Positions 20,712-51,607 of a stretch of DNA of 64,000 bases are shown here, in pieces. Origin of the DNA: Patescibacteria group bacterium (lineage in GTDB: Bacteria > Patescibacteriota > Microgenomatia > UBA1400 > PJMF01); the NCBI GenBank assembly GCA_041747555.1, contig JBGTEY010000003.1:19127-83126 (forward strand). The letters are read 5' to 3'. The translations under genes were made by a program, and so were the position numbers. The notes under the pieces were generated by a model. That model searched no databases, was not told where the DNA came from, and saw only the letters and a list, made by a program, of their open reading frames with translations. The stretch's first letter is position 1. Each line of letters starts with the position of its first letter.

Positions 20712-21899
20712 ATGAGTGCGCGCCTAAACCTGCAGAAATTACTGCTTGTAGTCACCTTAGTCTTTTCATTTTTCTTGAGTGCTTTGGTGCCAACAAAAGT
20801 TGCGGCTCAAAATGCATGCAATCCCTCAATACTTGACCACAATATCGAGGCTACTTACTTTGACGATGATCCAGACAATTCGATGAATATTACGGTCAAT
20901 AATCTGATTAACGGATCACTTTATTCGATACGAGTTATCGACTCGACTGGACTTGCTCTATCTGATGTCCAAATAAATTCAGGTGGAAATGGTCAGATCA
21001 CCACTATTATAAGTGCATCACTCGATCCTGATGTTTTTGATTATGATGTTGGTCTGGTTGGATCAGTTCCTGGATTCAGGCGGGTTACACTTTTTGGCGA
21101 TGGAATAGGCGTATGTGAAATCGCTACATTTTATATTATTGAAGAAAGTCTCATTTTAGATGACTACGAAGTATATCAAAACATTGGCGGTCAACAATGT
21201 TCTGAGAAAAATGGAGGCTGTTTAAACACCACACAACCAATTGTTTTTGAGACAAGAATAATATCTGCTTCTACTGGGGATGGTGTACCCGACTTGAATA
21301 TTTTGCATAACAGGAGTGGGGCGGGCAATCAATTACCAGCAACATACCTTGGAAATGGTGTATATAGGAGTAGTCATCCCCCCATGGACGATGGAACATA
21401 CACCATGTACGTAGAGGAGAACGGAACATTAAGTAACCCAGACATAGGTGATTTTTCGTTTACCGTCTCAATTGACTGCGATTCTTGTGTCCCACCTGGA
21501 GACATTACTGACGATTCAGTCAATCCAGTCGAAGATATTTACAACTTTTGCAATCAAATCAACGACGCTTCTCAACGCGCTGACTGCCTTGACTGTGCTG
21601 GAGGTCGGGGTGATTACAACGGTGTCTGGACTGCAGTCGGCTGTATTTCAAGAGAGCCAACCAGCATTGCGAGGACCTTCATTAGAATTGGTCTCGCTAT
21701 GTCAGGCGGTGTTGCTTTGCTCATGATTCTTGGTGCTGGCTTTATCCTTGCTACATCAGAAGGAGACCCCAAGCGCACTTCTGAAGCCAAAGAAATGGTG
21801 ACTGCAGCGGTGGTCGGATTACTATTTGTGATATTCTCAGTTGTAATTCTACAATTTATTGGATTTACCATCCTACAAATACCTGGGTTCGGAGGATGA
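20712..21899 (+). CDS. Secreted Cys-rich protein with C-terminal VirB2/TrbC-like two-helix pilin module
   Basis: Signal peptide ending VAAQN, then a ~280 aa Cys-rich domain. The C-terminus IGLAMSGGVALLMILGAGFILATSEGDPKRTSEAKEMVTAAVVGLLFVIFSVVIL has the same TM1-charged loop-TM2 layout as the small pilin-like paralogs downstream. Confidence 0.5.
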   Translation: MSARLNLQKLLLVVTLVFSFFLSALVPTKVAAQNACNPSILDHNIEATYFDDDPDNSMNITVNNLINGSLYSIRVIDSTGLALSDVQINSGGNGQITTIISASLDPDVFDYDVGLVGSVPGFRRVTLFGDGIGVCEIATFYIIEESLILDDYEVYQNIGGQQCSEKNGGCLNTTQPIVFETRIISASTGDGVPDLNILHNRSGAGNQLPATYLGNGVYRSSHPPMDDGTYTMYVEENGTLSNPDIGDFSFTVSIDCDSCVPPGDITDDSVNPVEDIYNFCNQINDASQRADCLDCAGGRGDYNGVWTAVGCISREPTSIARTFIRIGLAMSGGVALLMILGAGFILATSEGDPKRTSEAKEMVTAAVVGLLFVIFSVVILQFIGFTILQIPGFGG

Positions 21900-21903
21900 T
21901 GAA

Positions 21904-22566
21904 ATGAATACCGGAGTACTTAAAGCAATACTTGCGCGACTCAGTCTTCACCTTCTTGCTGTCGTGGTGTTATTTGGTATTTCTCTGATCGGGAATCCTG
22001 CAAAAGTGTCCGCTCAAAACATATTGCAATGTGGCACAGCTTTTTATTCAGATGAAGACCCCCCACCAATATGCCAATGTAGTTCTGGGGAAAGTCCATA
22101 CTTTGGTGATCTCGTCTGTTGCGGCTGGGTTTTCTCAAATCCAGATACCGGACAGCTTGCATGTGTTAGCACAAACTCAAATCCTTTTGACCCAGATATA
22201 GAGGGTGGCGACATTATTATCACCGAAGGTGTCTCAAATGCTACATTTGACATTCTCAATCCACTCCAAATTGGTGGTGGGGAAAACATAAATGTCGAAG
22301 CAGCCTCAGACTTTGCGACAGATCTCTCCACCCCTGGCGGTATAGTCACTAGACTACTTGAATTTGCCTTTCCCTTGGCGGGGTTATTGCTGTTCCTCAT
22401 GCTTGTCTGGGGTGGATTCGAAATCTTGGCTGGATCTGCCACCAAAAAATCAGTTGATGCAGGAAAACAAAGAATTACCGCAGCAATTCTGGGATTTTTA
22501 CTCCTGTTTGCAACCTACTGGATAGGACAACTACTCGAGGTGGTTTTTGGGGTAGTGATTCTTTAA
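21904..22566 (+). CDS. Secreted protein with C-terminal VirB2/TrbC-like pilin module
   Basis: The start is taken at ATG 21904, preceded by GGAGGA; the ORF track's TTG at 21859 is unlikely. Signal peptide ...AKVSAQN. The C-terminus LAGLLLFLMLVWGGFEILAGSATKKSVDAGKQRITAAILGFLLLFATYWIGQ is the pilin-like module. Confidence 0.5.
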   Translation: MNTGVLKAILARLSLHLLAVVVLFGISLIGNPAKVSAQNILQCGTAFYSDEDPPPICQCSSGESPYFGDLVCCGWVFSNPDTGQLACVSTNSNPFDPDIEGGDIIITEGVSNATFDILNPLQIGGGENINVEAASDFATDLSTPGGIVTRLLEFAFPLAGLLLFLMLVWGGFEILAGSATKKSVDAGKQRITAAILGFLLLFATYWIGQLLEVVFGVVIL

Positions 22567-22627
22567 AGAATTTAAAAAAAACGCGAATGACCGCGCGCGC
22601 TCTTTAGGTGCATTCGAGCACTTCAAC

Positions 22628-23350: not shown

Positions 23351-23399
23351 AGGACTACCTTTGGATGAAGAACGGTCAATTTTTGAGCAGTAATTAGTA

Positions 23400-24227: not shown

Positions 24228-24253
24228 AGTGTTTCCATTCGCAACCTATTATA

Positions 24254-24694
24254 ATGGTAATCACCAATATGTTCACTAGAGGAAAATCTCAATCTGCACA
24301 AGTAGTACCTCATTTTTTTATGGTGGTTTTGGTATTTTTTGCCTTATTTTTTGGTCTGTCACATCCAGCGCAAGCACAATGCGATCCCGGCAATGGAAGT
24401 ATTAACCTTGGAGAATGTTTGCGATTGAGTAATGATCAAGGTGTAGGTGAAGTTTACGAAAGCCCTGCATTTTTGGTAAATTTAATCGTAAGAAATTTGT
24501 TTGTTGCTGGGGCAGTCATTCTATTCCTCATGGTATTTTATGCAGGGTTTCTCTTTGTATTTAAAGGCAAAAAAGGTGTTGAGGATGCAAAAGCCGTTGC
24601 CACCAATGCTATTATTGGGTTTGTGGTCATGTTTTCTGCATACTGGATCGTACAAATCATCGCGGTCGTCACGGGCACTAATATACAACTCTAA
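24254..24694 (+). CDS. VirB2/TrbC-like pilin paralog 1
   Basis: Signal peptide ...SHPAQA|QC, a short Cys-containing head, then TM1 (LFVAGAVILFLMVFYAGFLFVF), loop KGKKGVEDAK, and TM2. The real start may be ATG 24269. Confidence 0.55.
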   Translation: MVITNMFTRGKSQSAQVVPHFFMVVLVFFALFFGLSHPAQAQCDPGNGSINLGECLRLSNDQGVGEVYESPAFLVNLIVRNLFVAGAVILFLMVFYAGFLFVFKGKKGVEDAKAVATNAIIGFVVMFSAYWIVQIIAVVTGTNIQL

Positions 24695-24697
24695 AAC

Positions 24698-25159
24698 ATG
24701 AACATACCTACACCAGTACATACTTGGCACAAATTTGCTTCTAAAACACCATTTTTGATGGCCGCATTGCTCGTAGTTGTTGTTTTTTTCTCCGCATATT
24801 CGCCTGTTTTAGCACAGATTGATGATATTGGCACGATTGATGTACCACCTGGTGTTGAACAATACAACACAAGCTCTGGTGCCGATATTGGCCTCGTGTT
24901 TTTCATCTCAAGAATGATTAGACTTGCGACTCTTGTTGCTGGATTGTGGGTCACCGCAAATACCATGATGGCGGGATATGTCTATCTTTCATCACAGGGA
25001 AAAGCCGATGCACACGGGAGAGTTCGAGACATTCTAACCATGAGCACCATCGGTCTGGTTCTAATTGTGACTGCCTACACCGTTGCGGGACTTTTAAGCT
25101 TGTTGATTTTTGGCGATCCCCTTTTTATTCTGAATCCTACTATTGAAGGGCCAGCATGA
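24698..25159 (+). CDS. VirB2/TrbC-like pilin paralog 2
   Basis: Same architecture: signal ...SPVLAQ, TM1, loop SSQGKADAHGR, TM2. The C-terminal motif is FGDPLFILNPTIEG. Confidence 0.55.
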   Translation: MNIPTPVHTWHKFASKTPFLMAALLVVVVFFSAYSPVLAQIDDIGTIDVPPGVEQYNTSSGADIGLVFFISRMIRLATLVAGLWVTANTMMAGYVYLSSQGKADAHGRVRDILTMSTIGLVLIVTAYTVAGLLSLLIFGDPLFILNPTIEGPA

Positions 25160-25725
25160 TTTCAAACATCATAAACCGAATCAAGTCATTCGCAATTCAC
25201 ACCGCAGTGATACTTGTGGTGTTTTGTGTCCCATTTTTTATCAACGCTCCCGTAGCTCAAGCACAATGCACAGGACCCGAACACGCTGGAAATTGTGTTG
25301 ATAATCGCACATGCATCAACTATCAAGGAGCATGGGTGGCGTTCGGTGCTGAGTGCGGATCTTCTTCTATTGGTGGTGTTCGAGCCCCCCAAGGTGTACA
25401 TCAATATAATCTTCTTGCTGGCACATACGGCTCAACTACTGCCAGTGGCCTGGTTGTGTTTGCCTCTAGAGCTATGCAGCTTGCGAGCATAGTTGCCGGG
25501 ATTTTCATGATGATCAACTTGGTTCGTGCGGGCTTTATTTATATCACCAAATTTGACCAAACATCAGCGCATCAGGAAGTACGAGATCTCCTCACTTACA
25601 GTGTGGTCGGTCTAGTAATCATGGTTTCTGCGTATGCTGGAGGTGGATTGATTGGTCTGGTATTCTTTGGAGACGCCACATTTGTTCTCAGTCCAACACT
25701 TGAGGGAGCAGTTCCACCACCGTAA
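25156..25725 (+). CDS. VirB2/TrbC-like pilin paralog 3
   Basis: Signal ...APVAQA|QC and a Cys-rich head. The C-terminal FGDATFVLSPTLEG motif is shared with paralog 2. The start overlaps the upstream stop (ATGA). Confidence 0.55.
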   Translation: MISNIINRIKSFAIHTAVILVVFCVPFFINAPVAQAQCTGPEHAGNCVDNRTCINYQGAWVAFGAECGSSSIGGVRAPQGVHQYNLLAGTYGSTTASGLVVFASRAMQLASIVAGIFMMINLVRAGFIYITKFDQTSAHQEVRDLLTYSVVGLVIMVSAYAGGGLIGLVFFGDATFVLSPTLEGAVPPP

Positions 25726-25777
25726 TAGTTAGATCGCCATCTGGTTTAACAACAGGTAGCTGGTATATAATGCAAAT

Positions 25778-26152
25778 ATGAAACTTTTCGTACCACAGCT
25801 AATTGCACAATTTGGAGGAGGTTTTGAACCTCCTGTTGATAATACATTCACCCAAGGTGCTGATTCGACACCAGAGGCAAACTTAGAAGTTATCGTGTCT
25901 AATATGCTTGGTGTGGTGACAGTTTTTGCAGGATTATTTTTCTTAATTTACTTTCTTATCGCTGCGTTTAAATGGATTTCTGCTGGTGGCGACACAGGCA
26001 AAGTTCAGGCTGCGCGCGATCAAATCATGAATGGAATTCTTGGATTAGTCATGGTGGTTGGCACGTACACAATTGTCGCCATAATTGGCGTCATCGTTGG
26101 ATTTAATATCTTGAATCCAGCAGCAATTATTAGAGATACATTGGTACCGTAA
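25778..26152 (+). CDS. VirB2/TrbC-like pilin paralog 4
   Basis: 124 aa with the loop SAGGDTGKVQAARDQ between two hydrophobic helices. The ATG lies 6 nt downstream of tggtatataat, suggesting a leaderless start. Confidence 0.5.
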   Translation: MKLFVPQLIAQFGGGFEPPVDNTFTQGADSTPEANLEVIVSNMLGVVTVFAGLFFLIYFLIAAFKWISAGGDTGKVQAARDQIMNGILGLVMVVGTYTIVAIIGVIVGFNILNPAAIIRDTLVP

Positions 26153-26611
26153 ATGAAAATAGCTGCAAATATCAATCAAATTCTCCGTACAAATCTAGGA
26201 ATCATATTTGTAGGACTGGTTATTCTACTGATGACAACATCCCCTGTGTCTGCGCAGATCACCAATCCAGTTATCGGTGAATTAGGTCAGGGCATCGGTG
26301 ATACGAGCGGCGACGAAAAATCAGCAGAGCTATTTGCCAACTTTTTTGTGAGCATTTGGCAAGCAGTGATTATGTTTGGTGGATTAACGGTGTTAGTGTT
26401 CTATATTTGGGGCGCATTTGAGTGGATTACTGCAGGAAGCGATACGAGCAAAGCAGAAAAAGCTCGATATAGAATCACCAATGCAACAATTGGCCTCATA
26501 CTGCTTATTAGCACATTTGTCATTGTTGGTTTTGTCAGCACCGCGCTCTTCGGAGAAGAGTTCCAAATTCTTAACTTAAGCCTACCAACCACACAAATTG
26601 GCGCACCATAA
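26153..26611 (+). CDS. VirB2/TrbC-like pilin paralog 5
   Basis: Signal ...SPVSAQ and loop TAGSDTSKAEKARYR. It is adjacent to the upstream stop. Confidence 0.55.
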   Translation: MKIAANINQILRTNLGIIFVGLVILLMTTSPVSAQITNPVIGELGQGIGDTSGDEKSAELFANFFVSIWQAVIMFGGLTVLVFYIWGAFEWITAGSDTSKAEKARYRITNATIGLILLISTFVIVGFVSTALFGEEFQILNLSLPTTQIGAP

Positions 26612-26623
26612 ATAAGGAAAACC

Positions 26624-27031
26624 ATGCTACTCTCCACTCTTATCGCTCAAGCAGAAATTAACCTCGGGCAAACAGCGATTGATCAAGGACTGCCTGGCAC
26701 CGCAGATGTTGATACCGCAGATTATGCCGGCGCCTTTGGAGTAATTCTTGGCAATATCATGAGTTTTGTGATGGTAATTGCCGCTCTTGCGGTACTTTTA
26801 TACCTCATCTGGGGTGCTGTTGAATGGATTACTGCTGGAGGAGATTCCGGAAAAGTAGAAAAAGCACGAACCAAAATGATGAATGCGATTATCGGTATTA
26901 TTGTTTTGTCTGCCGTAACAGCGATCTTTATGCTGATTCAAGAATTTTTAGGTCTGGAATTGCTTGATTTCGGAGGTGGTGGTCGATTTGATGATGTTGA
27001 CCTTGGGGGTGGTGGAGATGGCAGAAATTAA
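26624..27031 (+). CDS. VirB2/TrbC-like pilin paralog 6 (Gly/Asp-rich C-terminal tail)
   Basis: Loop TAGGDSGKVEKARTK, with C-terminal GGGGRFDDVDLGGGGDGRN. Confidence 0.5.
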   Translation: MLLSTLIAQAEINLGQTAIDQGLPGTADVDTADYAGAFGVILGNIMSFVMVIAALAVLLYLIWGAVEWITAGGDSGKVEKARTKMMNAIIGIIVLSAVTAIFMLIQEFLGLELLDFGGGGRFDDVDLGGGGDGRN

Positions 27032-27090
27032 TCATCACCTCTGCATCAACACCGCGATCGCTGCATTCAGCGAAATCAAAACCCTCAACT

Positions 27091-27124
27091 AAAGTAAAGC
27101 ACTTGACGTACGAAAATAAATCCA
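27091..27124 (+). promoter_or_regulatory. Sigma70-like promoter (TTGACG-18 nt-TATAAT) with downstream AAGGAG SD for paralog 7
   Basis: The sequence cttgacgtacgaaaataaatccatgtataatg is followed by ttaaggagtcaaATG at 27153. Confidence 0.5.
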
Positions 27125-27152
27125 TGTATAATGAATTAGTTGAAGTAAGTAC

Positions 27153-27605
27153 TTGAGATTAAGGAGTCAAATGACAAGACCAACATTCGATCGAGTAAAA
27201 CAGTATGCTGGATATGTTGCTACCTCAGCAACTGCCCTCGCACTATCTGCAAGAGGTGTTCTCGCCCAAGATGGAATTGATATCGGCACAGTTGAAACTG
27301 GAACTGGTTTTGCAACTGACCTTGGCTCAGTGATTACCGCTGTTCTTAGTTTTGTAATGATCATCGCTGCTCTGCTCGTCTTTCTCTACCTCATCTGGGG
27401 TGGAATTGAGTGGATCACATCTGGTGGTGACAAAGGAAAAACAGAAAGTGCTCGAAACAAAATTACGAGTGCTGTCGTGGGTATGATTATCCTCGCTGCT
27501 TCCTATGCAATACTGCTGCTCATCCTCAGATTCATCGGATTTGAAGACCTCGCAGATGTATTCGGTCAAGCATCAACTATTAATGAAGCTGGAGGCGCTG
27601 AATAA
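27153..27605 (+). CDS. VirB2/TrbC-like pilin paralog 7
   Basis: Signal ...GVLAQ and loop TSGGDKGKTESARNK. A canonical SD is present. Confidence 0.55.
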   Translation: MRLRSQMTRPTFDRVKQYAGYVATSATALALSARGVLAQDGIDIGTVETGTGFATDLGSVITAVLSFVMIIAALLVFLYLIWGGIEWITSGGDKGKTESARNKITSAVVGMIILAASYAILLLILRFIGFEDLADVFGQASTINEAGGAE

Positions 27606-27644
27606 CTTCCTGTATCACAACATTGCTTGTGAAAATAATAAAAA

Positions 27645-27667
27645 CCCCTCTCCGGAGGGGTTTTTTA
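27645..27667 (+). terminator. Rho-independent terminator closing the pilin array
   Basis: The stem cccctc-tccg-gagggg is followed by tttttt. Confidence 0.7.
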
Positions 27668-27739
27668 GTGCTGCAGGATTAGTCTGATCACACCCCACTC
27701 CACTCGCCTGATATTTAATAATCAGGTATACTACAGTTC

Positions 27740-28177
27740 ATGAAACCAACTCAAGAAAAGAAATCGCCTTTAAAACCGAAGGTCTCTGCGCTGGTTACAA
27801 ACGGCACCGCGTTCATCCTTAGTTTCTTTATTTTTGCCCAGCAAGCATTTGCTCAAAGCGCTTGGTCTGGCGTTTGTGTTGGTGGAGATGACAATGATGT
27901 TGCCACAATTCAAGGTCTAGAGTGCCTCATTGCCAATGTGTTTCAAGTAATTTTAACCGTTATTGGCTTGGCTGGTTTTGTAATGATGATTGTCGGTGCG
28001 TTCCGCTGGCTAGTTTCAGGTGGAAATACTAAGGGCGTCGAGTCTGCGCGCAATACCATTACCTTCGCTGTAGTAGGGTTGGTTGTGGCACTGAGCGCAT
28101 TTATCGTTCTCAACTTGATCGCATCATTCACTGGCGTCAACGTTATCACCTCGTTTGTGATTCCTGAGTCAACGTAA
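27740..28177 (+). CDS. VirB2/TrbC-like pilin paralog 8
   Basis: Signal ...AFAQS and loop VSGGNTKGVESARNT. The ATG is 7 nt downstream of tatact, giving a leaderless-type layout. Confidence 0.55.
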   Translation: MKPTQEKKSPLKPKVSALVTNGTAFILSFFIFAQQAFAQSAWSGVCVGGDDNDVATIQGLECLIANVFQVILTVIGLAGFVMMIVGAFRWLVSGGNTKGVESARNTITFAVVGLVVALSAFIVLNLIASFTGVNVITSFVIPEST

Positions 28178-28234
28178 GTTTTATCACCAACTCACTTGGT
28201 TTTCCTCACCTCAATACCCTGATATACTATCCTT

Positions 28235-31759: not shown

Positions 31760-31803
31760 TCCCAAAGGTCATATTTCACACTATTTAGAAAAACAGATAT
31801 GTA

Positions 31804-32745: not shown

Positions 32746-32922
32746 ACAAAAATACTAGGAGTGTGTCATTTTTATACCAGTCCACATTTGTAAATACAAG
32801 TAGTACTGCAAATATGATCATAAAAATGCCACTATTGTGCGCCTCACTCACGCTTAAAACAGCCGTCAACTCAATGAAATCCACCGTAGGCGGATCTCTC
32901 CTGTCTGCTATAATAAAACGCA

Positions 32923-38228: not shown

Positions 38229-38250
38229 CCTCTTAAACGAGGAGTTTTTT
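38229..38250 (+). terminator. Terminator-like hairpin (ctcctc-ttaaac-gaggag + T6) abutting the annotated start of the downstream gene
   Basis: Read directly from the sequence at 38229-38250. Confidence 0.45.
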
Positions 38251-40147: not shown

Positions 40148-40155
40148 TCGAGAGT

Positions 40156-41823: not shown

Positions 41824-41910
41824 CGGAATAACTCAGAGGGGTTTAGAGAAGTCGAATATAAAATATTTCTCCCTCTCTGGAATAGTCTCTCTCCAGCAGA
41901 GCAAAGATTT

Positions 41911-44900
41911 GTGTATCAAAAATTTAATATACCTTTCAAAAAATTCGAGAATAAACTCGACTCTCTACCGCTTATTGAACAATTTTTCTCATTTAGATTA
42001 AAAGACTTGGATAGATTTAGAGCACTGAGTGAGCTTGAGCAAGAGGCGGTCATTTCTGGCAAGATTAGCCAGCTGCAATCATCTACAAGTGCGATAACCG
42101 CACTTGAAAAAAAACTCGAAGAAACTCACCGATTGTCGCTCGCTCCACCCACCGGCATTGGCCTTGCCTTAGAAAAATTATCTGCTCTTGAGAGAGATAT
42201 TTTAAGACTCGGCCAGACGTTACCTGCAGGCTCCCCAGAACTTAGTCGACTTCAGCAATCGGTGGCAATTGCTCGAGTCCAACTAGAAAAACAACGCACT
42301 GCAACTGCTCGTTTTATTGATGTTGACTTTCAGTCTCAAGCTGGTCTTGCGGCTCTGAAATCAAGACTCGATCCCTTAGCGCAAGATCAGTCTCGAGTTG
42401 GTGCAGAGATAGACACAATAAAATCTCAAGTAGGAGGGCTTGAACAGTCGGTTTCTCGATTTGAAAGCACAACCAGCCCAACATTTATTGCTCAAACAGA
42501 AGCAGCTACCACACTTCATCAACTTCGCAATAAACTTTTGCGCCAAATAGAGCGGTCTCCATCAAGTGTTCAATTGCGAGATATTGAATCAGCTATTCAA
42601 CACATAGAGCAGCTTATAACCACTGAACAACAAGCAGTTAGACAAGCTGAAGTTGGTGGAATAGATTCTAGCTCAACTTCGCAACCTACCCAAAGCATGG
42701 GCAAGAAACTACTAGATCAAGCCCCTTCGGTCAAAGCTCTCGAAGAACTCAGGGGGCAACTCAAATCAATCTTACGGAGGCGTGGTCGTGATCAAACAGT
42801 GGTAAGGGAAATACAAGAGCAAATTACCGCTGTTCATGAGCGGTTAATCAATTTAAACAGAGCTCGGCAGGCAGCATTTGGTCAAGGAAATACCGCTTCA
42901 CTTTCTGCTCTCGCTGCTATTCGAACCGATCTAGATGCATTGGGCGACCGACAACCGCGAACTTTATCCGCTATCCAAGCTATTAAGGGTCAGGTAGGAA
43001 CGATTGAGCGAAAAGTAATCGAAGATCAAAATAATTCCAGCTCCCCACTTGAGGCACAAACAGATGCAATTTTATCACTCGGGCAACTCAGAACCCAACT
43101 CGAACATCAAATAAAACTATCACCTTCGAACTCTAAACTGCGCAGGATAGAAAATGCAATTCAAAAAATAGAACAGCAAATAATTCGTGAGCAACGCGCT
43201 ATTAAGAGAATTGAGGCTGGAAACAATGATCCCAATTCAATTAATACCGTTGTCTCAAGCGCAGGAGTTAGTTTTTTTGAACAATCACCCTCAATTATCG
43301 CTCTTGAGGAGCTAAAAAACCAACTACGACTGCTCTCTGGCATGCAGGATCAATATCGCATGGAGGTCATCGATATTCAACAAAAGATTTCTGCAGTTCA
43401 TAAACGATTAGAAGACACGCGGAGATCACTTGCAATTCCTTTCGAATTGTCTGGGCTCAGCGAGAAGGACATAGAAGTCGCTACACTTCTTGAACTAGTT
43501 AGAGCTCATGAAAAAAATCGACTATCTATTGAAGTGGCTGCAGGGATAAGAGAAAAGCTCCTTCAGGGTAGAAGCGCGCAGGAGATCGCACTATTGCTTG
43601 CATATCTGGAGCAAGGGAGTCGCGTGAGTTTGGGATATCAGGATAGCGCGGGCGATGGTGCATATGACGTTGGGAGTTTAGATGATTACAGCTTGAGTGC
43701 AATTGCTGGAGCTGACGAAATGCTCTCTGAGGGTGGTGGTGCATCGACTGGAATTGCTCAAAGATTTAACAATTGGCGTCATGGGAGTAACCGATCAAAA
43801 TTACAAAGAGGTTTTAATTACGCGACCAACAAATTAATGTCTCGAGGTGCGCAAGCGCTGTCTCCATGGGCAGCGGGTGCGCTCGCCATATCAAACAGAT
43901 TAATTGGTGAAGAAAATACCAATCGAGTTATCGGTGGCACACTCGCACTCATGATTGGTACCACCGTTGCCGCACTCAGCTCTTGGGGAGGCCGAATTGG
44001 CGCTCTCCTTGGTGGAACCCTTGGTGGTGTGGTGGGCTCGTATGTACCGGTCTTGGGCACAGCTGTTGGCGCAGTAGGCGGTGGTATCGCGGGTGGCTTG
44101 GCTGGGCATGTCTATATTCAGCCAGTTCTGGATAAAATTTTTGGCACCGGAACAGCGGAGTCAAGCGCGGGCTTTTCTGGTGCAAACTTAGGGAACCTCA
44201 ATCTTGGATCGCCTTCTGTGGCAGGTCAACTTCCGGGCGGAGTTGGTGCCAGCACTGGTTTGGGTGTCTCGAGCTCAGCAACACCTGGGGTAACTTTGGG
44301 TTCTAGTGGAGCCACTACTGCTGCTATGGCACCAACGCTGGGCACGGTTGCAGGCACCGGAGGTGCTGGTGTCGCGAGTGCCGGACTTACAGGAGCGGGC
44401 AATGCTGGATTAGGCACAGGAGTGGGCGCCACCCAGGCTAGTATTTGGGAAACATTAGTTAAATCACTGGGTGAGTTCTCTGTTGGAACTGTAGCACCCA
44501 TAGGCGCGATGGTGTTTGGCATAACATCGTTCACATTCACAATGTGGATTATTTTTGCTGCATTTTTAGCACCACTTCCCCTTGAGCCAGGCGCTGGATC
44601 TCAAACTCCGGGGTTTATCGAGGGATTTCAAGGATGTTGGCCGACAACGGGCACAATTAGCGGATATTTAACGTATTCATCTGATGGATCACAGCATGCA
44701 ACTATGCCAGGTGGATATGGTGGATTTGCTGGGCCAGGCACTGCTATCGATATTTCTACCGGTAGCAATCAGCCACCAATTTACTCCCCGTATTCTGGTA
44801 CAGCTGATTTTTATCCCAATGGTCATGGAATAAGCACTCTATACGGTACTCATGTGGTTCTCACCACCCCTGATTTTGTAATTATTTTTGCTCACATGAG

Positions 44901-45918
44901 AGATTTTGGTTCCGCAGCTACGATGAATGGACCAACAATGGATGTACCAATCATAGCTGGCCAACAAATAGGATTTGTAAATAGTACGGGCAACTCCACC
45001 GGAAACCACCTCCACTATGAAGTAATAGGAGACCCACCCATTACTATCCTAAGTCTTTTGCCTCTGAGCAACAGTTTTAAACAAGCTATCACTGTGAGTG
45101 AAGAAACAATTTTTGGTCTCCCCGTCAGCTCCACCGACTGCGCAATTAAAAATCTTGGTGATGCAACAGGGTTTATGGCCATCGGACCAAAAGAGATAAA
45201 TAATTTATTAATGTCTAGCACTGCAGAAATCAATCAAGGACCAATTAGAACCTGCACTTGGCAACAAAATCGAAATCTAGAAGCTGCAATTAATGCAAAC
45301 TTCTTTAATGCCAGTTTACTCCCCGTTGGTATTGCAGGAAACAATCCTGCCAAGTACTGGGAGAATGCAGATAATAGAGACATCACTTTTATTGAACAAA
45401 TGCAATCATTAGTGGTAACCTCTTCAACCGACTCAATCATTATGACCAGACCAGATCCCGACTTAGCGTATTCTCCCGCGAATGACTTTCCAATTGATCT
45501 ACCCGAATATAGCTCCGGCATCACCGGTCTCTATGTTGAGGGTGATAGCAGCACAAGTGATGTAAGGAATAGAACGCTAATAGGAACTGGAGTTGCTTCT
45601 GCTGATTGCTCAACTGAGTACGCAGGTGATGAGGTGATCTTCCTCCTAGTAATGAATAGCGCGACATTTGATGAAATTGAGCAAGAGGCTAGACGATGCG
45701 GAGCTACCGAAGTTATTCATCTCGATGGTGGTGGTTCAAGTGCATTTTGCACGAATGATCCTAACTACAATTTCGCGACAACAACTCCTGTTCCGGTAAA
45801 TGTTGGACTGTACCGCGCTGAGTTATTTTCAATTATTGAGGAAGATGGCGAGACCATCATTCAACCAGAACCAGGTGGAGGCGCGAACGACCCCGAACCA
45901 CCAATCGCACCAATCTAA
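41911..45918 (+). CDS. Multidomain cell-wall hydrolase candidate: coiled-coil tandem repeat, Gly-zipper segment, M23 peptidase, phosphodiester-glycosidase-like C-terminus
   Basis: Two ~186-aa repeats lie at aa 145-330 and 331-515 (ALEELRGQLK/ALEELKNQLR; ITAVHERL/ISAVHKRL). A Gly-zipper segment follows: GGTLGGVVGSYVPVLGTAVGAVGGGIAGGLAG. The M23 domain carries GTAIDISTG...PYSGTADF and GNSTGNHLHYEV (HxH). The C-terminus has EVIHLDGGGSSAF, the NAGPA-type DGGGSS motif. Confidence 0.65.
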   Translation: MYQKFNIPFKKFENKLDSLPLIEQFFSFRLKDLDRFRALSELEQEAVISGKISQLQSSTSAITALEKKLEETHRLSLAPPTGIGLALEKLSALERDILRLGQTLPAGSPELSRLQQSVAIARVQLEKQRTATARFIDVDFQSQAGLAALKSRLDPLAQDQSRVGAEIDTIKSQVGGLEQSVSRFESTTSPTFIAQTEAATTLHQLRNKLLRQIERSPSSVQLRDIESAIQHIEQLITTEQQAVRQAEVGGIDSSSTSQPTQSMGKKLLDQAPSVKALEELRGQLKSILRRRGRDQTVVREIQEQITAVHERLINLNRARQAAFGQGNTASLSALAAIRTDLDALGDRQPRTLSAIQAIKGQVGTIERKVIEDQNNSSSPLEAQTDAILSLGQLRTQLEHQIKLSPSNSKLRRIENAIQKIEQQIIREQRAIKRIEAGNNDPNSINTVVSSAGVSFFEQSPSIIALEELKNQLRLLSGMQDQYRMEVIDIQQKISAVHKRLEDTRRSLAIPFELSGLSEKDIEVATLLELVRAHEKNRLSIEVAAGIREKLLQGRSAQEIALLLAYLEQGSRVSLGYQDSAGDGAYDVGSLDDYSLSAIAGADEMLSEGGGASTGIAQRFNNWRHGSNRSKLQRGFNYATNKLMSRGAQALSPWAAGALAISNRLIGEENTNRVIGGTLALMIGTTVAALSSWGGRIGALLGGTLGGVVGSYVPVLGTAVGAVGGGIAGGLAGHVYIQPVLDKIFGTGTAESSAGFSGANLGNLNLGSPSVAGQLPGGVGASTGLGVSSSATPGVTLGSSGATTAAMAPTLGTVAGTGGAGVASAGLTGAGNAGLGTGVGATQASIWETLVKSLGEFSVGTVAPIGAMVFGITSFTFTMWIIFAAFLAPLPLEPGAGSQTPGFIEGFQGCWPTTGTISGYLTYSSDGSQHATMPGGYGGFAGPGTAIDISTGSNQPPIYSPYSGTADFYPNGHGISTLYGTHVVLTTPDFVIIFAHMRDFGSAATMNGPTMDVPIIAGQQIGFVNSTGNSTGNHLHYEVIGDPPITILSLLPLSNSFKQAITVSEETIFGLPVSSTDCAIKNLGDATGFMAIGPKEINNLLMSSTAEINQGPIRTCTWQQNRNLEAAINANFFNASLLPVGIAGNNPAKYWENADNRDITFIEQMQSLVVTSSTDSIIMTRPDPDLAYSPANDFPIDLPEYSSGITGLYVEGDSSTSDVRNRTLIGTGVASADCSTEYAGDEVIFLLVMNSATFDEIEQEARRCGATEVIHLDGGGSSAFCTNDPNYNFATTTPVPVNVGLYRAELFSIIEEDGETIIQPEPGGGANDPEPPIAPI

Positions 45919-45935
45919 GGTGTACTATACTAACA

Positions 45936-46919
45936 ATGACCATGGAAAAGATTCGTACCATCATCAGATGGTTTAAAGCACTACCAATCCAATTCAAACT
46001 CTTCGTATTTGTTGTGGTACTCTTGGCGATCTCAGGTATTTTGCGCCTGATTACCCCAGAAGTAACGCCAGAATCTATATTACTCCCAATTACGTCGGGG
46101 GTGGTGGGGCCAAAATCACTAGAGTCTGTGACTATATCTGGCGACCTCCCTCAACTTTCAGAGGAAGTTCCACTCTATCAGGGTGCAAACGCCACCGTTT
46201 CACCTGTTGAATTTGCTACATTTCTTGCTTCACAATTTGGTTTACCCAAATCGAGAGAACTTCCCAACCGATGGGTGGATTCTGAGAGCGGCATTTCTAT
46301 AGACTACAGGGATTACAGTAAACAAATTTTATATCTCCAGTACTTTGAAGAAACAGATGAAAATGCAACGCCCAACCGTGAGCAAGCCATCTCAGTTGCA
46401 GAAACCTTCATCAAAGACACGCTTGGGATTGAAAATGTTTCCCCTCAAATTGCTAATGTGCAGTTTCATGGTGAAGAATCTGTTGTTACTCAAGCAAACG
46501 CCACCCATGTTGTCGTGCCATTTGTTTTTGCCATAGATGGAATTCAAACGTACTACGAGGGAGCAAGGGACACATACGCACTGGTCTACATAGATGCAGA
46601 ATCTAGAGTAGTCAAGGCAGAATTTTTCACCCCACCGCCAAATCCGACGCAGTATGCAGTTGCAGATCCTCTCAATAAAAATACCCTCGAGCGATCAATT
46701 AAATCTGGAAATGGAGAAATAATCGGTTCAACAAGTGTACAGCGTTTCACCATTACTGACTTACAAAATCTCGATATACAACTTATTGAACTGGAGTACC
46801 GATACTCGGTTCGAGATAATCGATTTTACCCGTACTTTCGCATGATTGGAGACGGCGAAACAGCCGACGGCACGATCGCGCGGGTGACTCTCATTCACCC
46901 AGCAGTGGAACTCCAGTAG
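45936..46919 (+). CDS. Bitopic membrane protein (N-terminal TM + about 270 aa external domain); possible VirB8/TcpC-like scaffold
   Basis: TM helix LFVFVVVLLAISGILRL. The assignment rests on topology and synteny (between the hydrolase and the PrgI-like gene) only. Confidence 0.3.
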   Translation: MTMEKIRTIIRWFKALPIQFKLFVFVVVLLAISGILRLITPEVTPESILLPITSGVVGPKSLESVTISGDLPQLSEEVPLYQGANATVSPVEFATFLASQFGLPKSRELPNRWVDSESGISIDYRDYSKQILYLQYFEETDENATPNREQAISVAETFIKDTLGIENVSPQIANVQFHGEESVVTQANATHVVVPFVFAIDGIQTYYEGARDTYALVYIDAESRVVKAEFFTPPPNPTQYAVADPLNKNTLERSIKSGNGEIIGSTSVQRFTITDLQNLDIQLIELEYRYSVRDNRFYPYFRMIGDGETADGTIARVTLIHPAVELQ

Positions 46920-46940
46920 AATCTTGGGTATCATAGACCT

Positions 46941-48158
46941 ATGCGCGAGCACCCAATTCCCACAGATATCACCAACTATCGTTTTCATATAATCGGAACG
47001 ATGACGCTCAAGCAGTTTGGTGAGGTTGCGCTCGGAGTAATTGTCGCGTTTTTGCTGTACATGACCAATTTGCCTGTGGTAGTTAAATGGCCATTGATCA
47101 TTTTTTCAGTCGGACTTGGGGGGGCTGCTGCCTTCATCCCTATTGCCGAGCGTCCGCTCGATCACTGGATCGTGACATTCTATAAAGCACTTTACAAACC
47201 CACTCAATTTTTCTGGAAACGAACAGAGCGAATTCCAGAACCTTTCCTATTTAAACCACGTGATAATGAAAAACCTCAAGAAGAAGAGCTTGATTTAACA
47301 CCCTACAAGCGTCAGAGAATTAAAGAATATCTTCACTCTGTTCCCTCTGAAACACCCTATAGTCCTTCGTTTACAGAAGATGAAACTGCCAGAATGCAAA
47401 GTATTCTTGACTCATTTTCAACAACGCCCGTAACTTCCACATCGTCAACGCCAATTCGTGAAAACGCCGTCAAACCAACGCTTTCGGTAAGGGTGCGGGA
47501 CATTCGAGCACCAGAATCTAACGATCTTACTACACCAATTCTTTCCCAAGCAGCACCGACTACTGCCATTCTTCCTCAAGCAACTGAAGAATCTCCCATA
47601 AGCCCAGCAGCACTTTTTGAAACATCAGAATTACTACCCGATCAAGAACAAAGCGCGAGCAAACGCTTGATTGACCAAACACCTCAAGTATCCACACCGT
47701 CAGAACTCAACCAAACCCATCAAGATCACACTATTATTCATTCAACACAAGATACTAAAACTAATACACCAACTGTCGAAATAGCCGCTGATGAGATAAT
47801 TCAAGTTGCGGCACCCTCGCGCACCTCAAGTCAATCAAGGCATATTCCTGAAAGTACCACCAACGACGACGATCTCTCCTTATTTCCAGATCTTCCAACA
47901 GAACCAAACAAAATTGTTGGTATAGTGGTCACTCAAAACAATGAACTTATCCCCGAAGCAATTATTGAAGTAAAAAATGACCGTGGAGAAGTGCAGCGGG
48001 CTGTAAAAACTAATGCCTTGGGTCAATTTTTCATCACAACTCCTCTCATGGATGGTGATTACACGATAACAATTGAAAAAGAAGACTTTGTATTTGAGCC
48101 GTATCAAATTCAACTCAGTGGCCAAGTCGTTCGCCCGATCAAAATACAGAGCTTGTAA
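46941..48158 (+). CDS. PrgI/VirB3-like membrane protein fused to Pro/Thr/Ser-rich linker and C-terminal beta-sandwich (carboxypeptidase-regulatory-like) domain
   Basis: The N-terminus PIPTDITNYRFHIIGTMTLKQFGEVALGVIVAFLLYM matches the PrgI-family pattern (VPKDIRxYxEKxxGGLTLRQF + TM). The C-terminus IVGIVVTQNNELIPEAIIEVKNDRGEVQRAVKTNALGQFFITTPLMDGDYTITIEK resembles a CarbopepD_reg fold. Confidence 0.5.
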   Translation: MREHPIPTDITNYRFHIIGTMTLKQFGEVALGVIVAFLLYMTNLPVVVKWPLIIFSVGLGGAAAFIPIAERPLDHWIVTFYKALYKPTQFFWKRTERIPEPFLFKPRDNEKPQEEELDLTPYKRQRIKEYLHSVPSETPYSPSFTEDETARMQSILDSFSTTPVTSTSSTPIRENAVKPTLSVRVRDIRAPESNDLTTPILSQAAPTTAILPQATEESPISPAALFETSELLPDQEQSASKRLIDQTPQVSTPSELNQTHQDHTIIHSTQDTKTNTPTVEIAADEIIQVAAPSRTSSQSRHIPESTTNDDDLSLFPDLPTEPNKIVGIVVTQNNELIPEAIIEVKNDRGEVQRAVKTNALGQFFITTPLMDGDYTITIEKEDFVFEPYQIQLSGQVVRPIKIQSL

Positions 48159-48193
48159 ACAAACCTCTGTCTGAAGTACAGTACACATAGGAT

Positions 48194-49474
48194 ATGCCAG
48201 ACACCACAATTCAATCTACCACTCAGCAATTTCTTGATATTTACGACATAACCAATAATTTGTTGATTATGAAAAATGGCACAACATCGGTCGTAATTAC
48301 CGTTGATGCTATGAATTTTGGTCTCCTTGCTGAAGAAGAACAGGATGGAATCATGTATGCCTATGCTGGTTTACTAAATTCTCTCAACTACCCTATTCAA
48401 ATTGTCATTAAGTCACAAACCAAGGACGTAACAGGATACTTACACCTCCTTCAAGAACAAGAAGAAAAAACCACAAACAGAACAATTCAAAAAAGAATTC
48501 GTGAATATCGTGAATTTGTTGCCAATCTTATTCATGATCGAAATGTGCTTGATAAGAAATTTTATGTTGTTATTCCTGCAACTTCTCTCGAGCTAGGGTT
48601 GCTTTCTGCACAATCTGTACTACCTGGGTCAAGTGAGTTTGACATAACTAAATATGAAAAAACGATGATTATTGAGAAAGCGCTCAATATCTTAGAGCCT
48701 AAGCGAGATCATCTCATTTCACAATTCTCTCGAATTGGATTATTCTCAAAGCAACTTACCACACAAGAACTAATTCAGTTATTCTATGTAAGTTACAACC
48801 CTGAAGCAATTGAGGGACAACAACTTGCAGACACTAAAAATTACACAACACCGCTCGTGACGACCGGTGCAAAAAGGGCATTTATGAACGACCAACCCTC
48901 CGTCCAACCACAAACTACTCCTAACACTCCTCAAGAGAGTACGCCTCTAGATACTACATCTCAGAGTCCCGCGCAGAATCAGGTGTCAAATACTCAGCAA
49001 CCAGAAACCACCGCACCAATGTCTACTACGCAACCAGCGACTCCAGAGCAACTCACTCAGGATCCAAGTGCGTTTACTCAGCCTACTTCACCAGTAGTAA
49101 ATACAGTGGAATCTCCTCAACCACAACCTACATCACCACCAGAACCAATTGCGATTGAGACACCACCACCGATTACTTCACCAACACCAGTCGCTCCACC
49201 CGCACCACCAACTTCTTCAACGATGCCAACTACGACACCACCCTCCGCGGATTCATTATCGCAATCTATGATGTCAACACCGCCAACTCCATCAGCAGAA
49301 CCAGTTGCCACAACACAAGAACCAACCATTGCTCAAGAAGAAATTAATAAAACTCTTGGACAACTCAACTCCATGGATGCGGCAAACAATATGACACCCC
49401 CAGCTCAAGGTGGGGACTCTGTGGACAATGCCGGTGCTCAACCAGGCGACAAGGACGCACTACCAGAAATATAA
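48194..49474 (+). CDS. Hypothetical protein: about 220-aa globular N-domain (possible VirB4 N-terminal-domain-like) + about 200-aa Pro/Thr-rich tail
   Basis: FLDIYDITNNLLIMKNGTTSVVITVDAMNFGLLAEEEQDGIMYAYAGLLNSL resembles the TrbE/TraC N-terminal 'kdGsl...g.d.e..seee' region. It shares a reading frame with the downstream VirB4, separated only by TAA-acg. Confidence 0.4.
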   Translation: MPDTTIQSTTQQFLDIYDITNNLLIMKNGTTSVVITVDAMNFGLLAEEEQDGIMYAYAGLLNSLNYPIQIVIKSQTKDVTGYLHLLQEQEEKTTNRTIQKRIREYREFVANLIHDRNVLDKKFYVVIPATSLELGLLSAQSVLPGSSEFDITKYEKTMIIEKALNILEPKRDHLISQFSRIGLFSKQLTTQELIQLFYVSYNPEAIEGQQLADTKNYTTPLVTTGAKRAFMNDQPSVQPQTTPNTPQESTPLDTTSQSPAQNQVSNTQQPETTAPMSTTQPATPEQLTQDPSAFTQPTSPVVNTVESPQPQPTSPPEPIAIETPPPITSPTPVAPPAPPTSSTMPTTTPPSADSLSQSMMSTPPTPSAEPVATTQEPTIAQEEINKTLGQLNSMDAANNMTPPAQGGDSVDNAGAQPGDKDALPEI

Positions 49475-49477
49475 ACG

Positions 49478-51607
49478 ATGAAAAACTTCCTGCAATCACT
49501 ACCGTTTCCGTTTGGTAAAAAGAAAAAACCAGACGAGCCAGTTACAGACCAAGCTGCACTTGCGCAAAAGCAACAAGAGGAACAGCTTGAGAAACTGAAA
49601 GCGTTTTCGCGTGGTCTTGTAACTATTCAGGATATTATTGCGCCTGAAGCGATTGAGGTTGATTTTACGTTTCAAAAAATTAATTCAACATACTCACGCA
49701 CTCTGTTTGTAGCTGGGTATCCTCGAAGTGTGCCAGCAAACTGGTTGTCACCATTGATTAATTTTCCACATAAGTTAAACATTTCACTTTTTGTGTACCC
49801 AATGGACTCGGGAGAGATTCTTGATAATCTCAAGAGAAAAATTACTGAAATGGAGGCAGAAATACAATCTGATCTTCGTGCAGGGAAAATCAGCAACATT
49901 AATACCGAGGTACAACTCGAAGATGCGCGATTTATTCGAGAAGAACTCGCAAAGGGCTCTGAGCGATTCTTCCAATTTGGGCTCTACACAACCATTCAAG
50001 CAGATAGTCTTGAAATGCTCGATAAAATTACCAAAAATATTCAGTCAACGCTCGGCTCACTCCTCATTGTTTCCAAGAAAGCTACGCTACAAATGGATGA
50101 TGGGTTTAAAACCACCCTCCCCATGGGCACAGACAAACTTCTCGTGACCAGAAACATGGATACCACCTCATTAGCAACGACGTTTCCATTCACTTCATCA
50201 GAGTTAACCATGGAAACCGGTATCATGTATGGCATTAATGAACATAATGATTCTCTTGTAATTTTCGACAGATTTAAGATGGAAAATGCCAACATGGTCA
50301 TTTTTGCCAAGTCCGGTGCTGGAAAATCGTATACAGTGAAGCTCGAAATTCTCCGTCAACTCATGTTTGGTGTTGAAGTGTTAATTATGGACCCTGAACA
50401 CGAATACGAAGAACTATGCAGCGCTGTTGGCGGTTCATATATCAACTTCACTTTTAGTTCTGATACCAAAATTAATCCATTTGATCTCTCAAACCTCTAC
50501 GAAGAAGGTGAAAATGAACTTGGACAGAAAATCATCTCACTCCACGGTCTATTGAAGGTTATGCTGGGTGAAATGACCCCTCAACAAGACGCCATGCTTG
50601 ACCGAGCGCTCGTTGCTGCATACAAAGCTAAAGGCATCACCCCCGATCCTGCAACCCAAACGAACGAACCACCACTCATGGAAGATGTCTACAAATCACT
50701 CATAGGTATGGAGGATAGTGACGCTAACGACATCGCTGCTCGGCTAGAAAAATACATCACTGGTTCATTTAGAGGTATTTTTGACCAAAAATCTAACATA
50801 AACATTACAAGTCAACTAACGGTCTTCTCTGTCAAAGAAATGGAAGAAGAGATGCGCCCGATTGCAATGTATATTATTTTAGATTTCATCTGGACTCGAG
50901 TGAAGAAAGATCTTAAAAAACGCCTCTTAATCGTTGATGAAGCCTGGTACTTCATGAAACATAAAGATAGCGCTTCATTCCTACACTCCATGGTTAAGCG
51001 CGCAAGGAAATACTACCTCGGAATTACAACAATCACTCAGGATGTGGAAGACTTCTTGCATAATGACTACGGAAAAGCGATCGTAACTAACGCGTCCATT
51101 ATGTTTTTGATGAAGCAATCAACCGCATCCATCCCCATCTTAGCCGAAACGTTCTACCTATCTCAAGGTGAGCGACAACTTTTGGTGACTGCAGATATTG
51201 GAGAAGGTATTTTCTTCGCAGGTCAAAATCACGTCGCCCTCAGAGTAGTTTCTAGCGATGACGAACATGCAATTATTACCACCAATCCAGAAGAGCTTGT
51301 ACATAGAAAACGGATGAGAGCTGCTCAGGCACTCGCAAAAGTACAAGCTGCTACTCAAGAATCTTCAGACCAGAGCCAATCTCCCCAAACTTCACAAGCT
51401 ACCCGAGGCGTACTCGCTGGTAGTGCCCCCAACACACAGGCTGCCCCCGCGTCTCCAGGTGCAAAGCCTATACAAACTGGATTCACCTCACAAAATGACA
51501 GCAATAAAACAGCCACTCCACCAGCTAGCGGTAGCGCAGAAGCTCAAGCACAATACAAAGATCCAACCCAAATGTATAGCATTGATGATTATCAGCCTCC
51601 TCAATAA
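49478..51607 (+). CDS. Type IV secretion VirB4-like ATPase (PrgJ/TcpF type) with Ser/Gln-rich C-terminal extension
   Basis: The N-domain IQDIIAPEAIEVDFTFQKINSTYSRTLFVAGYPRSV is typical of monoderm VirB4. Walker A is MVIFAKSGAGKSYT, followed by IMDPEHEYEE. Walker B is LLIVDEAWYF. Confidence 0.8.
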   Translation: MKNFLQSLPFPFGKKKKPDEPVTDQAALAQKQQEEQLEKLKAFSRGLVTIQDIIAPEAIEVDFTFQKINSTYSRTLFVAGYPRSVPANWLSPLINFPHKLNISLFVYPMDSGEILDNLKRKITEMEAEIQSDLRAGKISNINTEVQLEDARFIREELAKGSERFFQFGLYTTIQADSLEMLDKITKNIQSTLGSLLIVSKKATLQMDDGFKTTLPMGTDKLLVTRNMDTTSLATTFPFTSSELTMETGIMYGINEHNDSLVIFDRFKMENANMVIFAKSGAGKSYTVKLEILRQLMFGVEVLIMDPEHEYEELCSAVGGSYINFTFSSDTKINPFDLSNLYEEGENELGQKIISLHGLLKVMLGEMTPQQDAMLDRALVAAYKAKGITPDPATQTNEPPLMEDVYKSLIGMEDSDANDIAARLEKYITGSFRGIFDQKSNINITSQLTVFSVKEMEEEMRPIAMYIILDFIWTRVKKDLKKRLLIVDEAWYFMKHKDSASFLHSMVKRARKYYLGITTITQDVEDFLHNDYGKAIVTNASIMFLMKQSTASIPILAETFYLSQGERQLLVTADIGEGIFFAGQNHVALRVVSSDDEHAIITTNPEELVHRKRMRAAQALAKVQAATQESSDQSQSPQTSQATRGVLAGSAPNTQAAPASPGAKPIQTGFTSQNDSNKTATPPASGSAEAQAQYKDPTQMYSIDDYQPPQ

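Follow-up and report, generated by a model that had tools for sequence, protein, structure and literature searches.

What is the gene set, similar to a type IV secretion system (T4SS), that ends just before dnaA in this 64-kb stretch (hereafter the window), which surrounds the replication origin of a small chromosome of Patescibacteria type: the remains of a conjugative element, or an apparatus that the cell keeps for contact with a host? Our analysis indicates that positions 24254-51607 very probably encode a chromosomal T4SS of an uncultured Microgenomatia-type Patescibacterium, which belongs to the Candidate Phyla Radiation (CPR) clade within the monoderm class MPF_FATA and would work by the mechanism set out below. 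The system is another instance of a published kind, not a new one. Two outlying pilin-fusion genes belong with the cluster and a VirD4-like gene at 3991-6327 possibly does. A preliminary description of the locus had already proposed a chromosomally fixed, non-conjugative, monoderm-type apparatus, probably devoted to host contact, and every test that we ran supported this proposal. It had also named a VirB4-like ATPase, a PrgI/VirB3-like protein, an M23/NAGPA hydrolase, ten VirB2-like pilin-module genes and a VirD4-like protein, all of which were recovered by the profile and structure matches reported here. Pfam scans covered all 52 non-overlapping main open reading frames (ORFs) of the window, and NCBIfam scans covered the 19 cluster proteins plus the VirD4-like protein.

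First, we examined the ATPase at the end of the cluster (49478-51607, plus strand) and assigned it to VirB4 of the MPF_FATA/CD1110 type. It matches Pfam P-loop_TraG (1.8e-23), passes the NCBIfam model NF045971 “VirB4-like, CD1110 family” (conju_CD1110) with 382 bits against a cutoff of 325, and has its best solved-structure match in 4AG5, the C-domain of the Thermoanaerobacter VirB4 (7.5e-45). Its Walker A (AKSGAGKS), DPEHEY and Walker B (LLIVDEAW) motifs are readable, and the protein ends in a low-complexity tail. Placement in the CPR clade was made by proxy: the 80 loci of VirB4 relatives that we retained share 64-86% identity with it over the best segment, whereas on plasmids, in Bacillota and Actinomycetota, even the best relatives stop at 28-37%. 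All 80 can be traced, through the title of the record or a common gene order, to Patescibacteria-type metagenome-assembled genomes (MAGs). Many of these MAG records are titled “uncultured Pseudomonadales bacterium”, “Limisphaerales” or “TM6”, and look mislabelled when judged by gene content and synteny.

Directly upstream of virB4 lies an ORF (48194-49474, plus strand) that the preliminary description had left unassigned and that is a further component of the system, a TrsD-like protein. It consists of a VirB4 N-domain at residues ~1-225 followed by a variable P/T/Q-rich tail. This ORF matches NF045975 VirB4_plasma, the VirB4 model of Mycoplasma integrative conjugative elements (ICEs), at model positions 103-281 (6.2e-9), and the VirB4 ORF matches the same model at positions 292-892, so that the two matches abut. 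Since the two ORFs thus tile one long VirB4, the upstream one is its separately encoded N-domain. The TrsD call rests on this tiling because hhalign between the TrsD-like and VirB4 N-domain families, each assembled from the 80 loci, gave no significant match (E 0.07, with a Neff, or effective number of sequences, of ~2). The match to the TrsD model itself (NF041427) was weak (0.015), BLASTP against VirB4 returned low-complexity similarity only, and searches of the PDB by sequence and by profile gave nothing useful. The gene stands directly upstream of virB4 in 73 of the 80 loci.

Two genes upstream of virB4, a PrgI/VirB3-like membrane protein (46941-48158, plus strand) scores 30.2 bits with PF12666 against a gathering score of 27, and this position is conserved in 69/80 loci. 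A long linker joins it to a C-terminal CarboxypepD_reg beta-sandwich domain (Pfam), a pairing that is also present in a relative. We noticed that P/T/Q/S-rich low-complexity stretches recur in these proteins (48800-49470 in the TrsD-like protein, 51300-51600 in VirB4 and 47400-47900 in PrgI) and also at 6372-7226, on a 284-aa protein upstream of the VirD4-like gene. Such tails and linkers differ in length among relatives, with TrsD-like proteins ranging from 226 to 705 aa.

The virB4 operon also encodes a membrane-anchored giant wall hydrolase of 1335 aa (41911-45918, plus strand), whose position is conserved in relatives and which carries Peptidase_M23 (34.1 bits) and NAGPA (27.1 bits) domains. 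Its predicted layout places a coiled-coil N-terminal region in the cytoplasm and the M23 and NAGPA domains outside the membrane, with a Gly-rich membrane region between them. Within the N-terminal region, ~170 aa are duplicated in tandem (residues ~144-311 and ~334-501, 42% identity, E 2e-37). We regard this protein as the functional counterpart of VirB1, although it is not an SLT/CHAP homologue of it.

Two further assignments of the preliminary description fared less well. First, the bitopic membrane protein of 327 aa (45936-46919, plus strand) had been taken for a possible VirB8. A confident structural model (predicted local distance difference test, pLDDT, of 92) shows three extracytoplasmic alpha/beta subdomains of a YycI/YycH/PepSY-like fold, and we therefore rejected the VirB8-like identity. 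Foldseek of this model against the PDB returned no meaningful match, tblastn of the protein against plasmids returned none, and PDB sequence and profile searches with its family gave nothing useful. Homologues were hard to collect: word-indexed searches recovered 3-5 proteins even with a 26-sequence profile, and an exhaustive HMMER search was needed. Second, the polytopic membrane protein at 32923-34611 (plus strand), with a signal peptide and about eight hydrophobic segments, had been called VirB6-like. No hidden Markov model (HMM) detects a VirB6 in the lineage of the window and PDB sequence and profile searches with this family were equally unproductive. At the level of fold, the family, which has more than 1000 members, is a VirB6 candidate, as judged from predicted structure.

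A PF18895 T4SS_pilin module was recognised in ten ORFs of the window; five of them pass the gathering threshold and the other five fall short of it. Their modules align as a two-helix hairpin, with a mean pairwise identity of 24% and a maximum of 46%. A six-frame scan with an HMM built from the ten modules, which match it by construction, was informative in that it brought up no eleventh module. Among the window proteins compared all against all by BLASTP, we saw no paralogy outside the pilins. Eight of the ten genes form an array on the plus strand. Pilins 1-6 (24254-27031), recognised by PF18895, hairpin alignment and positional orthology, are tightly packed at 24254-24694, 24698-25159, 25156-25725, 25778-26152, 26153-26611 and 26624-27031; pilin 7 (27171-27605) and pilin 8 (27740-28177) follow.

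Then, we compared the array of the window with those of five other genomes (L081, L083, L084, L085 and L086), whose VirB6-like proteins are only 44-52% identical to that of the window. In every one of the five, the best match of each of the eight pilins holds the same ordinal place, and these orthologues share 35-65% identity, as against 24% among paralogues. Pilin 8 is the most conserved (56-65% identity to its positional orthologues), and pilins 5 and 6 are fused in one relative. Because of this positional orthology across genomes, we regard the array as an old, fixed set of distinct genes, which would fit fixed and non-redundant roles better than a recent diversification or a rapidly varying cassette. 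A gene for an ECF-type (extracytoplasmic function) sigma factor lies divergently just upstream of the array in L081, L083, L085 and one further relative; an amino-acid-kinase-family gene holds this place in the window, L084 and L086, and no such sigma factor turned up in the window.

Pilin 7 stands apart within the array. We revised its start from a TTG at 27153 to an ATG at 27171, which is preceded by a TAAGGAG Shine-Dalgarno sequence, and its NF045849 score (28.7 bits) is the highest of the ten pilins. A sigma-70 promoter-like site with 11/12 consensus matches (TTGACG-N18-TATAAT, 27103-27132, plus strand) precedes the gene, and an intrinsic-terminator-like hairpin with a T-run (AAAAACCCCTCTCCGGAGGGGTTTTTT, 27640-27666, plus strand) follows it. 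Among the array pilins it is the only one with a strong promoter-like site and a terminator-like hairpin of its own. Both are conserved, as TTGAC(G/T)-N17/18-TA(T/C)AAT can be read upstream of the pilin 7 orthologue in 5/5 compared arrays and an equivalent hairpin follows it in five other genomes. Because of these two conserved elements, pilin 7 is our candidate for the major pilin.

The remaining two pilin modules belong to outlying pilin-fusion genes (20712-21899 and 21859/21904-22566, plus strand), each of whose products combines a signal peptide with an extracellular domain and ends in a pilin hairpin. Their PF18895 scores of 21.5 and 26.2 bits are both below the gathering score of 26.6. 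They have no positional orthologue in the arrays of relatives, and uppS and the amino-acid-kinase-family gene separate them from the array of the window. We also observed that in all 12 secreted proteins of the cluster (ORFs at 20712, 21859, 24254-27740, 28235 and 32923) the signal peptide ends in (V/L/A)-x-A followed by Gln, the predicted +1 Gln being invariant. Of the further window proteins that have a hydrophobic segment at the N-terminus, we checked seven, and none shows this motif. The leaders of the pilins at 25778 and 26624 are very short, about 10 residues.

Do these genes form one system? The preliminary description had pictured them as scattered and interleaved with core genes. This is true of the two pilin-fusion genes (20712-22566) and of the VirD4-like gene, the only ones parted from the cluster by core genes. 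In contrast, 24254-51607 is one contiguous 27-kb cluster without a recognisable housekeeping gene inside, and its gene order recurs in relatives, which is why we treat it as one cluster. First, the 80 loci show the recurring order of the 555-aa protein, hydrolase, 327-aa protein, PrgI, TrsD, VirB4, dnaA, dnaN, rnpA and yidC, with dnaA following virB4 in 72 of them. Second, on contigs to which VirB6-like homologues led us, the recurring order is a pilin array of 7-9 genes, a secreted protein of ~870-1210 aa, an opposite-strand gene encoding ~300-350 aa, the VirB6-like gene, a giant opposite-strand gene and then the virB4 operon. In two relatives, about 19 kb suffice to hold everything from the array up to the TrsD-like gene beside virB4 (in one) or up to virB4 itself (in the other).

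A different account would split the locus into separate systems, with the pilin array and VirB6-like gene, the VirB4 operon and the VirD4-like gene all independent of each other, for example with an exapted VirD4-like ATPase. We consider it quite improbable. It would agree with the make-up of the cluster, in which two minus-strand genes join three or more plus-strand transcription units, with the 13 ORFs, including lgt, pth, the DNA ligase gene and recF, that part the VirD4-like gene from the cluster, and with the literature, in which homologues of the type IV coupling protein (T4CP) rarely lie near virB4 in CPR genomes and that of Southlakia is non-essential. On the other hand, the array and the VirB4 operon are adjacent in all relatives with enough contig to judge. 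Moreover, in a Pontibacillus replicon described below, pilins, VirB6, PrgI, TrsD, VirB4 and hydrolase stand in one block, with a VirD4-like homologue 11 kb away.

The VirD4-like ATPase of the T4CP superfamily (3991-6327, minus strand) is itself well supported: TrwB_AAD_bind scores 31.9 bits against a gathering score of 20.5, the motifs GKTGTGKS, DPHGE and VDEF are readable, and the best solved-structure matches are DotL and TrwB, only around the P-loop. It has one N-terminal transmembrane (TM) segment and an unusual domain of ~340 aa ahead of the ATPase. In Pontibacillus, a homologue that includes this N-terminal domain is found ~11 kb from virB4 and seems fragmented. The link of the VirD4-like gene to the cluster is uncertain, and this co-occurrence, in one case, would speak for it.

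We then asked whether the single cluster favoured above could derive from a mobile element. Neither Pfam nor NCBIfam gave a match to relaxase families within their scopes, and the Pfam scan of the main ORFs matched no integrase family and none of the VirB9, VirB10 and VirB11 or outer-membrane core VirB7/9/10 families, in line with the absences that had been claimed for this locus. A diderm-type system (MPF_T) was considered and rejected, since its outer-membrane core VirB7/9/10 and VirB11 families were not matched. A decaying or domesticated ICE, with its relaxase and integrase outside the window or recently lost, would account for the homology of the core proteins to conjugative MPF_FATA systems, and an Embleya plasmid relative (VirB4 36% identity) does keep the classical set, with a T4CP gene and one that is annotated as “replication-relaxation family protein” beside virB4. 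However, the dnaA-side gene order is kept in those 72/80 loci despite VirB4 identities down to 64%, the GC content of the window is even (0.37-0.47), no tRNA genes were found in its 64 kb and no integrases either, and all genes are intact and long. Boundaries of an integrative element were judged by integrase genes, tRNA genes and GC content; direct repeats were not searched for. We thus rejected an integrated mobile element and regard the decaying-ICE account as extremely unlikely.

How does the fixed chromosomal T4SS that we favour relate to published systems? Wang et al. 2023 (Cell, PMC10633639) found the T4SS of Southlakia epibionticum (SEML1_0006-0019) essential for epibiotic growth. This system has Gram-positive-like subunits and an essential pilin series, and neither a coupling protein nor a relaxase could be recognised in it. 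Quiñonero-Coronel et al. 2025 (Microb Genom, PMC12102498) surveyed 3,035 CPR genomes and found that CPR VirB4 forms a monophyletic clade nested in MPF_FATA, with TrsD and PrgI adjoining virB4. The same survey reports VirB6 as “scarce” in Microgenomatia, few VirB8 matches, almost no relaxases in CPR, T4CP genes far from virB4, T4SS genes near dnaA, dnaN and rnpA, and 441 VirB2 arrays of 2-11 genes with a mean identity of 25%, especially in Microgenomatia and Saccharimonadia. The window resembles this clade in its VirB4, in a TrsD next to virB4, in PrgI, in a hydrolase that is not of the SLT/CHAP type, in the diversity of its pilin array (24%, maximum 46%, versus ~25%), in the missing relaxase, in the distant T4CP and in its dnaA/dnaN/rnpA location. 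It differs from the published clade in that its cluster extends over ~27 kb and contains five large, conserved, uncharacterised proteins. The preliminary description had set the expanded pilin repertoire and the attached giant proteins apart from described ICE or plasmid systems. Taken as a claim of novelty this was wrong, because the CPR literature reports the arrays, the missing relaxase, the distant T4CP and the proximity to dnaA. In the papers that we read, we found no report for CPR T4SSs of positional orthology of the pilins, nor of a dedicated promoter and terminator for one of them.

Compared with monoderm MPF_FATA systems (the CTn2 CD1110 family of C. difficile, pGO1 Trs, pCF10 Prg/Pcf and the Mycoplasma ICE Mbov_0395/0397), the window shares a VirB4 that passes the CD1110 model, TrsD-like and PrgI-like partners, a large multi-domain hydrolase and the lack of a VirB7/9/10 core. 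Its pilin modules also give sub-threshold matches to the “Mbov_0395 pilin-like” NCBIfam model of the Mycoplasma ICE. Unlike conjugative members of this class, the window has no relaxase or adjacent T4CP, is chromosomally fixed beside oriC, carries ten pilin-module genes instead of none or one, and combines M23 with NAGPA rather than SLT with CHAP. Diderm VirB/D4 systems (A. tumefaciens VirB, R388 Trw) differ further, as the window is monoderm and without VirB5, VirB7, VirB9, VirB10 and VirB11. In contrast to the VirB2 arrays of Bartonella and Anaplasma, the paralogues of the window are ancient and positionally conserved, and fixed distinct roles fit them better than antigenic variation.

The best relative of VirB4 in the plasmid database (37% identity) is from Pontibacillus sp. 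ALD_SL1 (Bacillota; NZ_CP062975.1), on a replicon of 898 kb typed as non-mobilizable. Its cluster at 351-361 kb runs from two PF18895 pilins through TrbL/VirB6, PrgI/TraL, a TrsD-like protein (29% identical to that of the window) and VirB4 to a giant M23 hydrolase, the same core order as in the window. It differs in having two pilins only, NlpC/P60 instead of NAGPA on the hydrolase, a location that is not next to dnaA, and neither recognisable giant unknown proteins nor a YycI-like protein. Flagellar genes flank this cluster in the part of the replicon that we examined (341-373 kb). Because of the Pontibacillus pilins and the sub-threshold Mycoplasma ICE matches, pilin-like subunits are not unique to CPR among monoderm systems, and T4SSs with pilins and no detected relaxase may perhaps not be CPR-specific either. 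A broader combined proposal would make all of them a distinct, non-conjugative monoderm T4SS subclass that is not confined to CPR. In it, eight non-redundant VirB2 paralogues in a fixed set, one of which would serve as the dedicated major pilin at high expression, would form a pilus or conduit of mixed composition through a wall of Gram-positive type, and the conserved giant cytoplasmic proteins would act as substrates or as a cytoplasmic platform. Taken as a whole, we hold this proposal to be unlikely.

What, then, would the CPR-clade T4SS of the window do? In the mechanism that we propose, the M23/NAGPA hydrolase would open the wall, and VirB4/TrsD, anchored by PrgI on the VirB6-like channel, would drive the assembly of a filament from Sec-exported pilins. 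This filament would consist mainly of pilin 7, the other seven paralogues being minor or specialised subunits. The complex of pilus and channel would contact a host bacterium and move material other than relaxase-bound DNA across the interface. As cargo, effector proteins going out would be our first choice and host macromolecules coming in our second, although sequence alone does not show which way the transport runs.

Inward transport can also be put in a stronger form, in which pilus and channel take up DNA, nucleotides and macromolecules of the host, as H. pylori ComB and archaeal Ced do, and so compensate for missing biosynthesis. Reviews, which treat the function of CPR T4SSs as unknown, name effector delivery and uptake from the host as the options. 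The lack of a relaxase match in the window, the reported absence of nucleotide synthesis from CPR genomes and weak matches of VirB4 to the CedB and CedD models are all compatible with import. Yet the CedB model (NF041017) gives 49.6 bits against a cutoff of 700, while the conjugative CD1110 model gives 382 bits, and we found no DNA-processing or uptake genes in the cluster. We therefore rejected a Ced identity, and see a dedicated importer as conceivable but rather unlikely.

Several observations weigh against the export-first T4SS that we prefer. First, neither the sequence nor the literature that we read gave direct evidence of an assembled pilus or of the cargo, and five conserved proteins of the cluster are without an assigned role. 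Second, a VirB8-type (NTF2-like) bitopic subunit was not found, and the idea of a major pilin rests on matches to promoter and terminator consensus sequences. Third, the relaxase searches with Pfam and NCBIfam were confined to 64 kb, so that a divergent or distant relaxase is possible. Finally, ~18 kb separate the VirD4-like gene from the main array, its distance to the closest pilin-fusion gene is ~14 kb, and its reportedly dispensable counterpart in Southlakia also counts on this side.

Where it has been tested in Patescibacteria, in a single species, epibiotic growth requires the T4SS, and the locus leaves this picture unchanged. What it sharpens is the question of which protein serves as VirB6 in Microgenomatia, the view of the pilin paralogues as ancient, fixed in order and probably non-redundant, and the likely major pilin. 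Pontibacillus, in turn, is a cultivable Bacillota genus that has a cluster of this core order and might lend itself to the study of such a system.

Five cluster proteins gave only noise with Pfam (at E<=5) and NCBIfam. The first, directly after the pilin array, is a secreted protein of 1174 aa (28235-31759, plus strand) that has a signal peptide; its orthologues, which hold the same position, are 29-39% identical. Pfam, NCBIfam and the PDB all gave no match, and it is a candidate adhesin, tip protein or glycosidase. By reading its sequence we noticed motifs resembling glycoside hydrolase clan GH-A near the N-terminus (VYGNEVNN, with “GNEVNN”, and YILTEFS, with “TEFS”) and an SLT-like “AMWGEESGF” (with “GEES”) near the C-terminus, which profile and PDB searches did not confirm. 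The second is a soluble protein of 313 aa (31804-32745, minus strand), without a family match in Pfam or NCBIfam; L081 and L083 have proteins 37-44% identical to it in the corresponding place. The third, assigned to the cluster by synteny, is a giant protein of 1074 aa (34709-37933, minus strand), cytoplasmic and coiled-coil in its N-terminal half; in relatives, a large minus-strand gene always comes next after the VirB6-like gene. The fourth is a cytoplasmic protein of 632 aa (38249-40147, plus strand), the first gene of a probable 38249-51607 operon, which is weakly conserved, relatives carrying proteins of 669-709 aa at its position. The last is a protein of 555 aa without TM segment or signal peptide (40156-41823, plus strand), for which tblastn found matches at the same position in 13 loci.

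The surroundings of the cluster are those of a chromosomal origin. To its left lie lgt, pth, an ATP-dependent DNA ligase gene, a Fic protein gene, recF, SpoIID, uppS and the amino-acid-kinase-family gene; lgt, pth, lig, recF and uppS were all found by Pfam at the places given before. The Fic/DOC protein, which has a helix-turn-helix (HTH) domain at its C-terminus (15584-16675, minus strand), and the ligase of eukaryote/archaeal type (13775-15562, minus strand) are encoded between the VirD4-like gene and the cluster, and nothing ties them to the T4SS. To the right, dnaA (51799-53337, plus strand) starts 191 bp after virB4, in agreement with the earlier estimate of about 200 bp, and is followed on the plus strand by dnaN, rnpA, yidC, a jag-like KH/R3H gene, RNase H, a DUF4012 protein and ribosomal protein L25 (Pfam).

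The probable oriC region (51608-53666, plus strand) comprises dnaA and both flanking intergenic regions. DnaA-box-like 9-mers in these two short regions start at 51693, 51705, 53383, 53394 and 53591. Over the whole window their number is not above chance (18 observed, 18 expected), but 5/18 fall beside dnaA, a clustering that is suggestive, and the cumulative GC skew turns at ~53.8-54 kb. Because of this clustering and the skew turn, a replication origin beside dnaA is probable. The skew is confounded by the C-rich codons of the P/T/Q-rich tails. Nearly all cluster genes are on the plus strand, to the left of the probable origin and pointing towards it; therefore they would be transcribed head-on to a leftward replication fork. 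The orientation of virB4 followed by dnaA is kept in 72/80 related loci.

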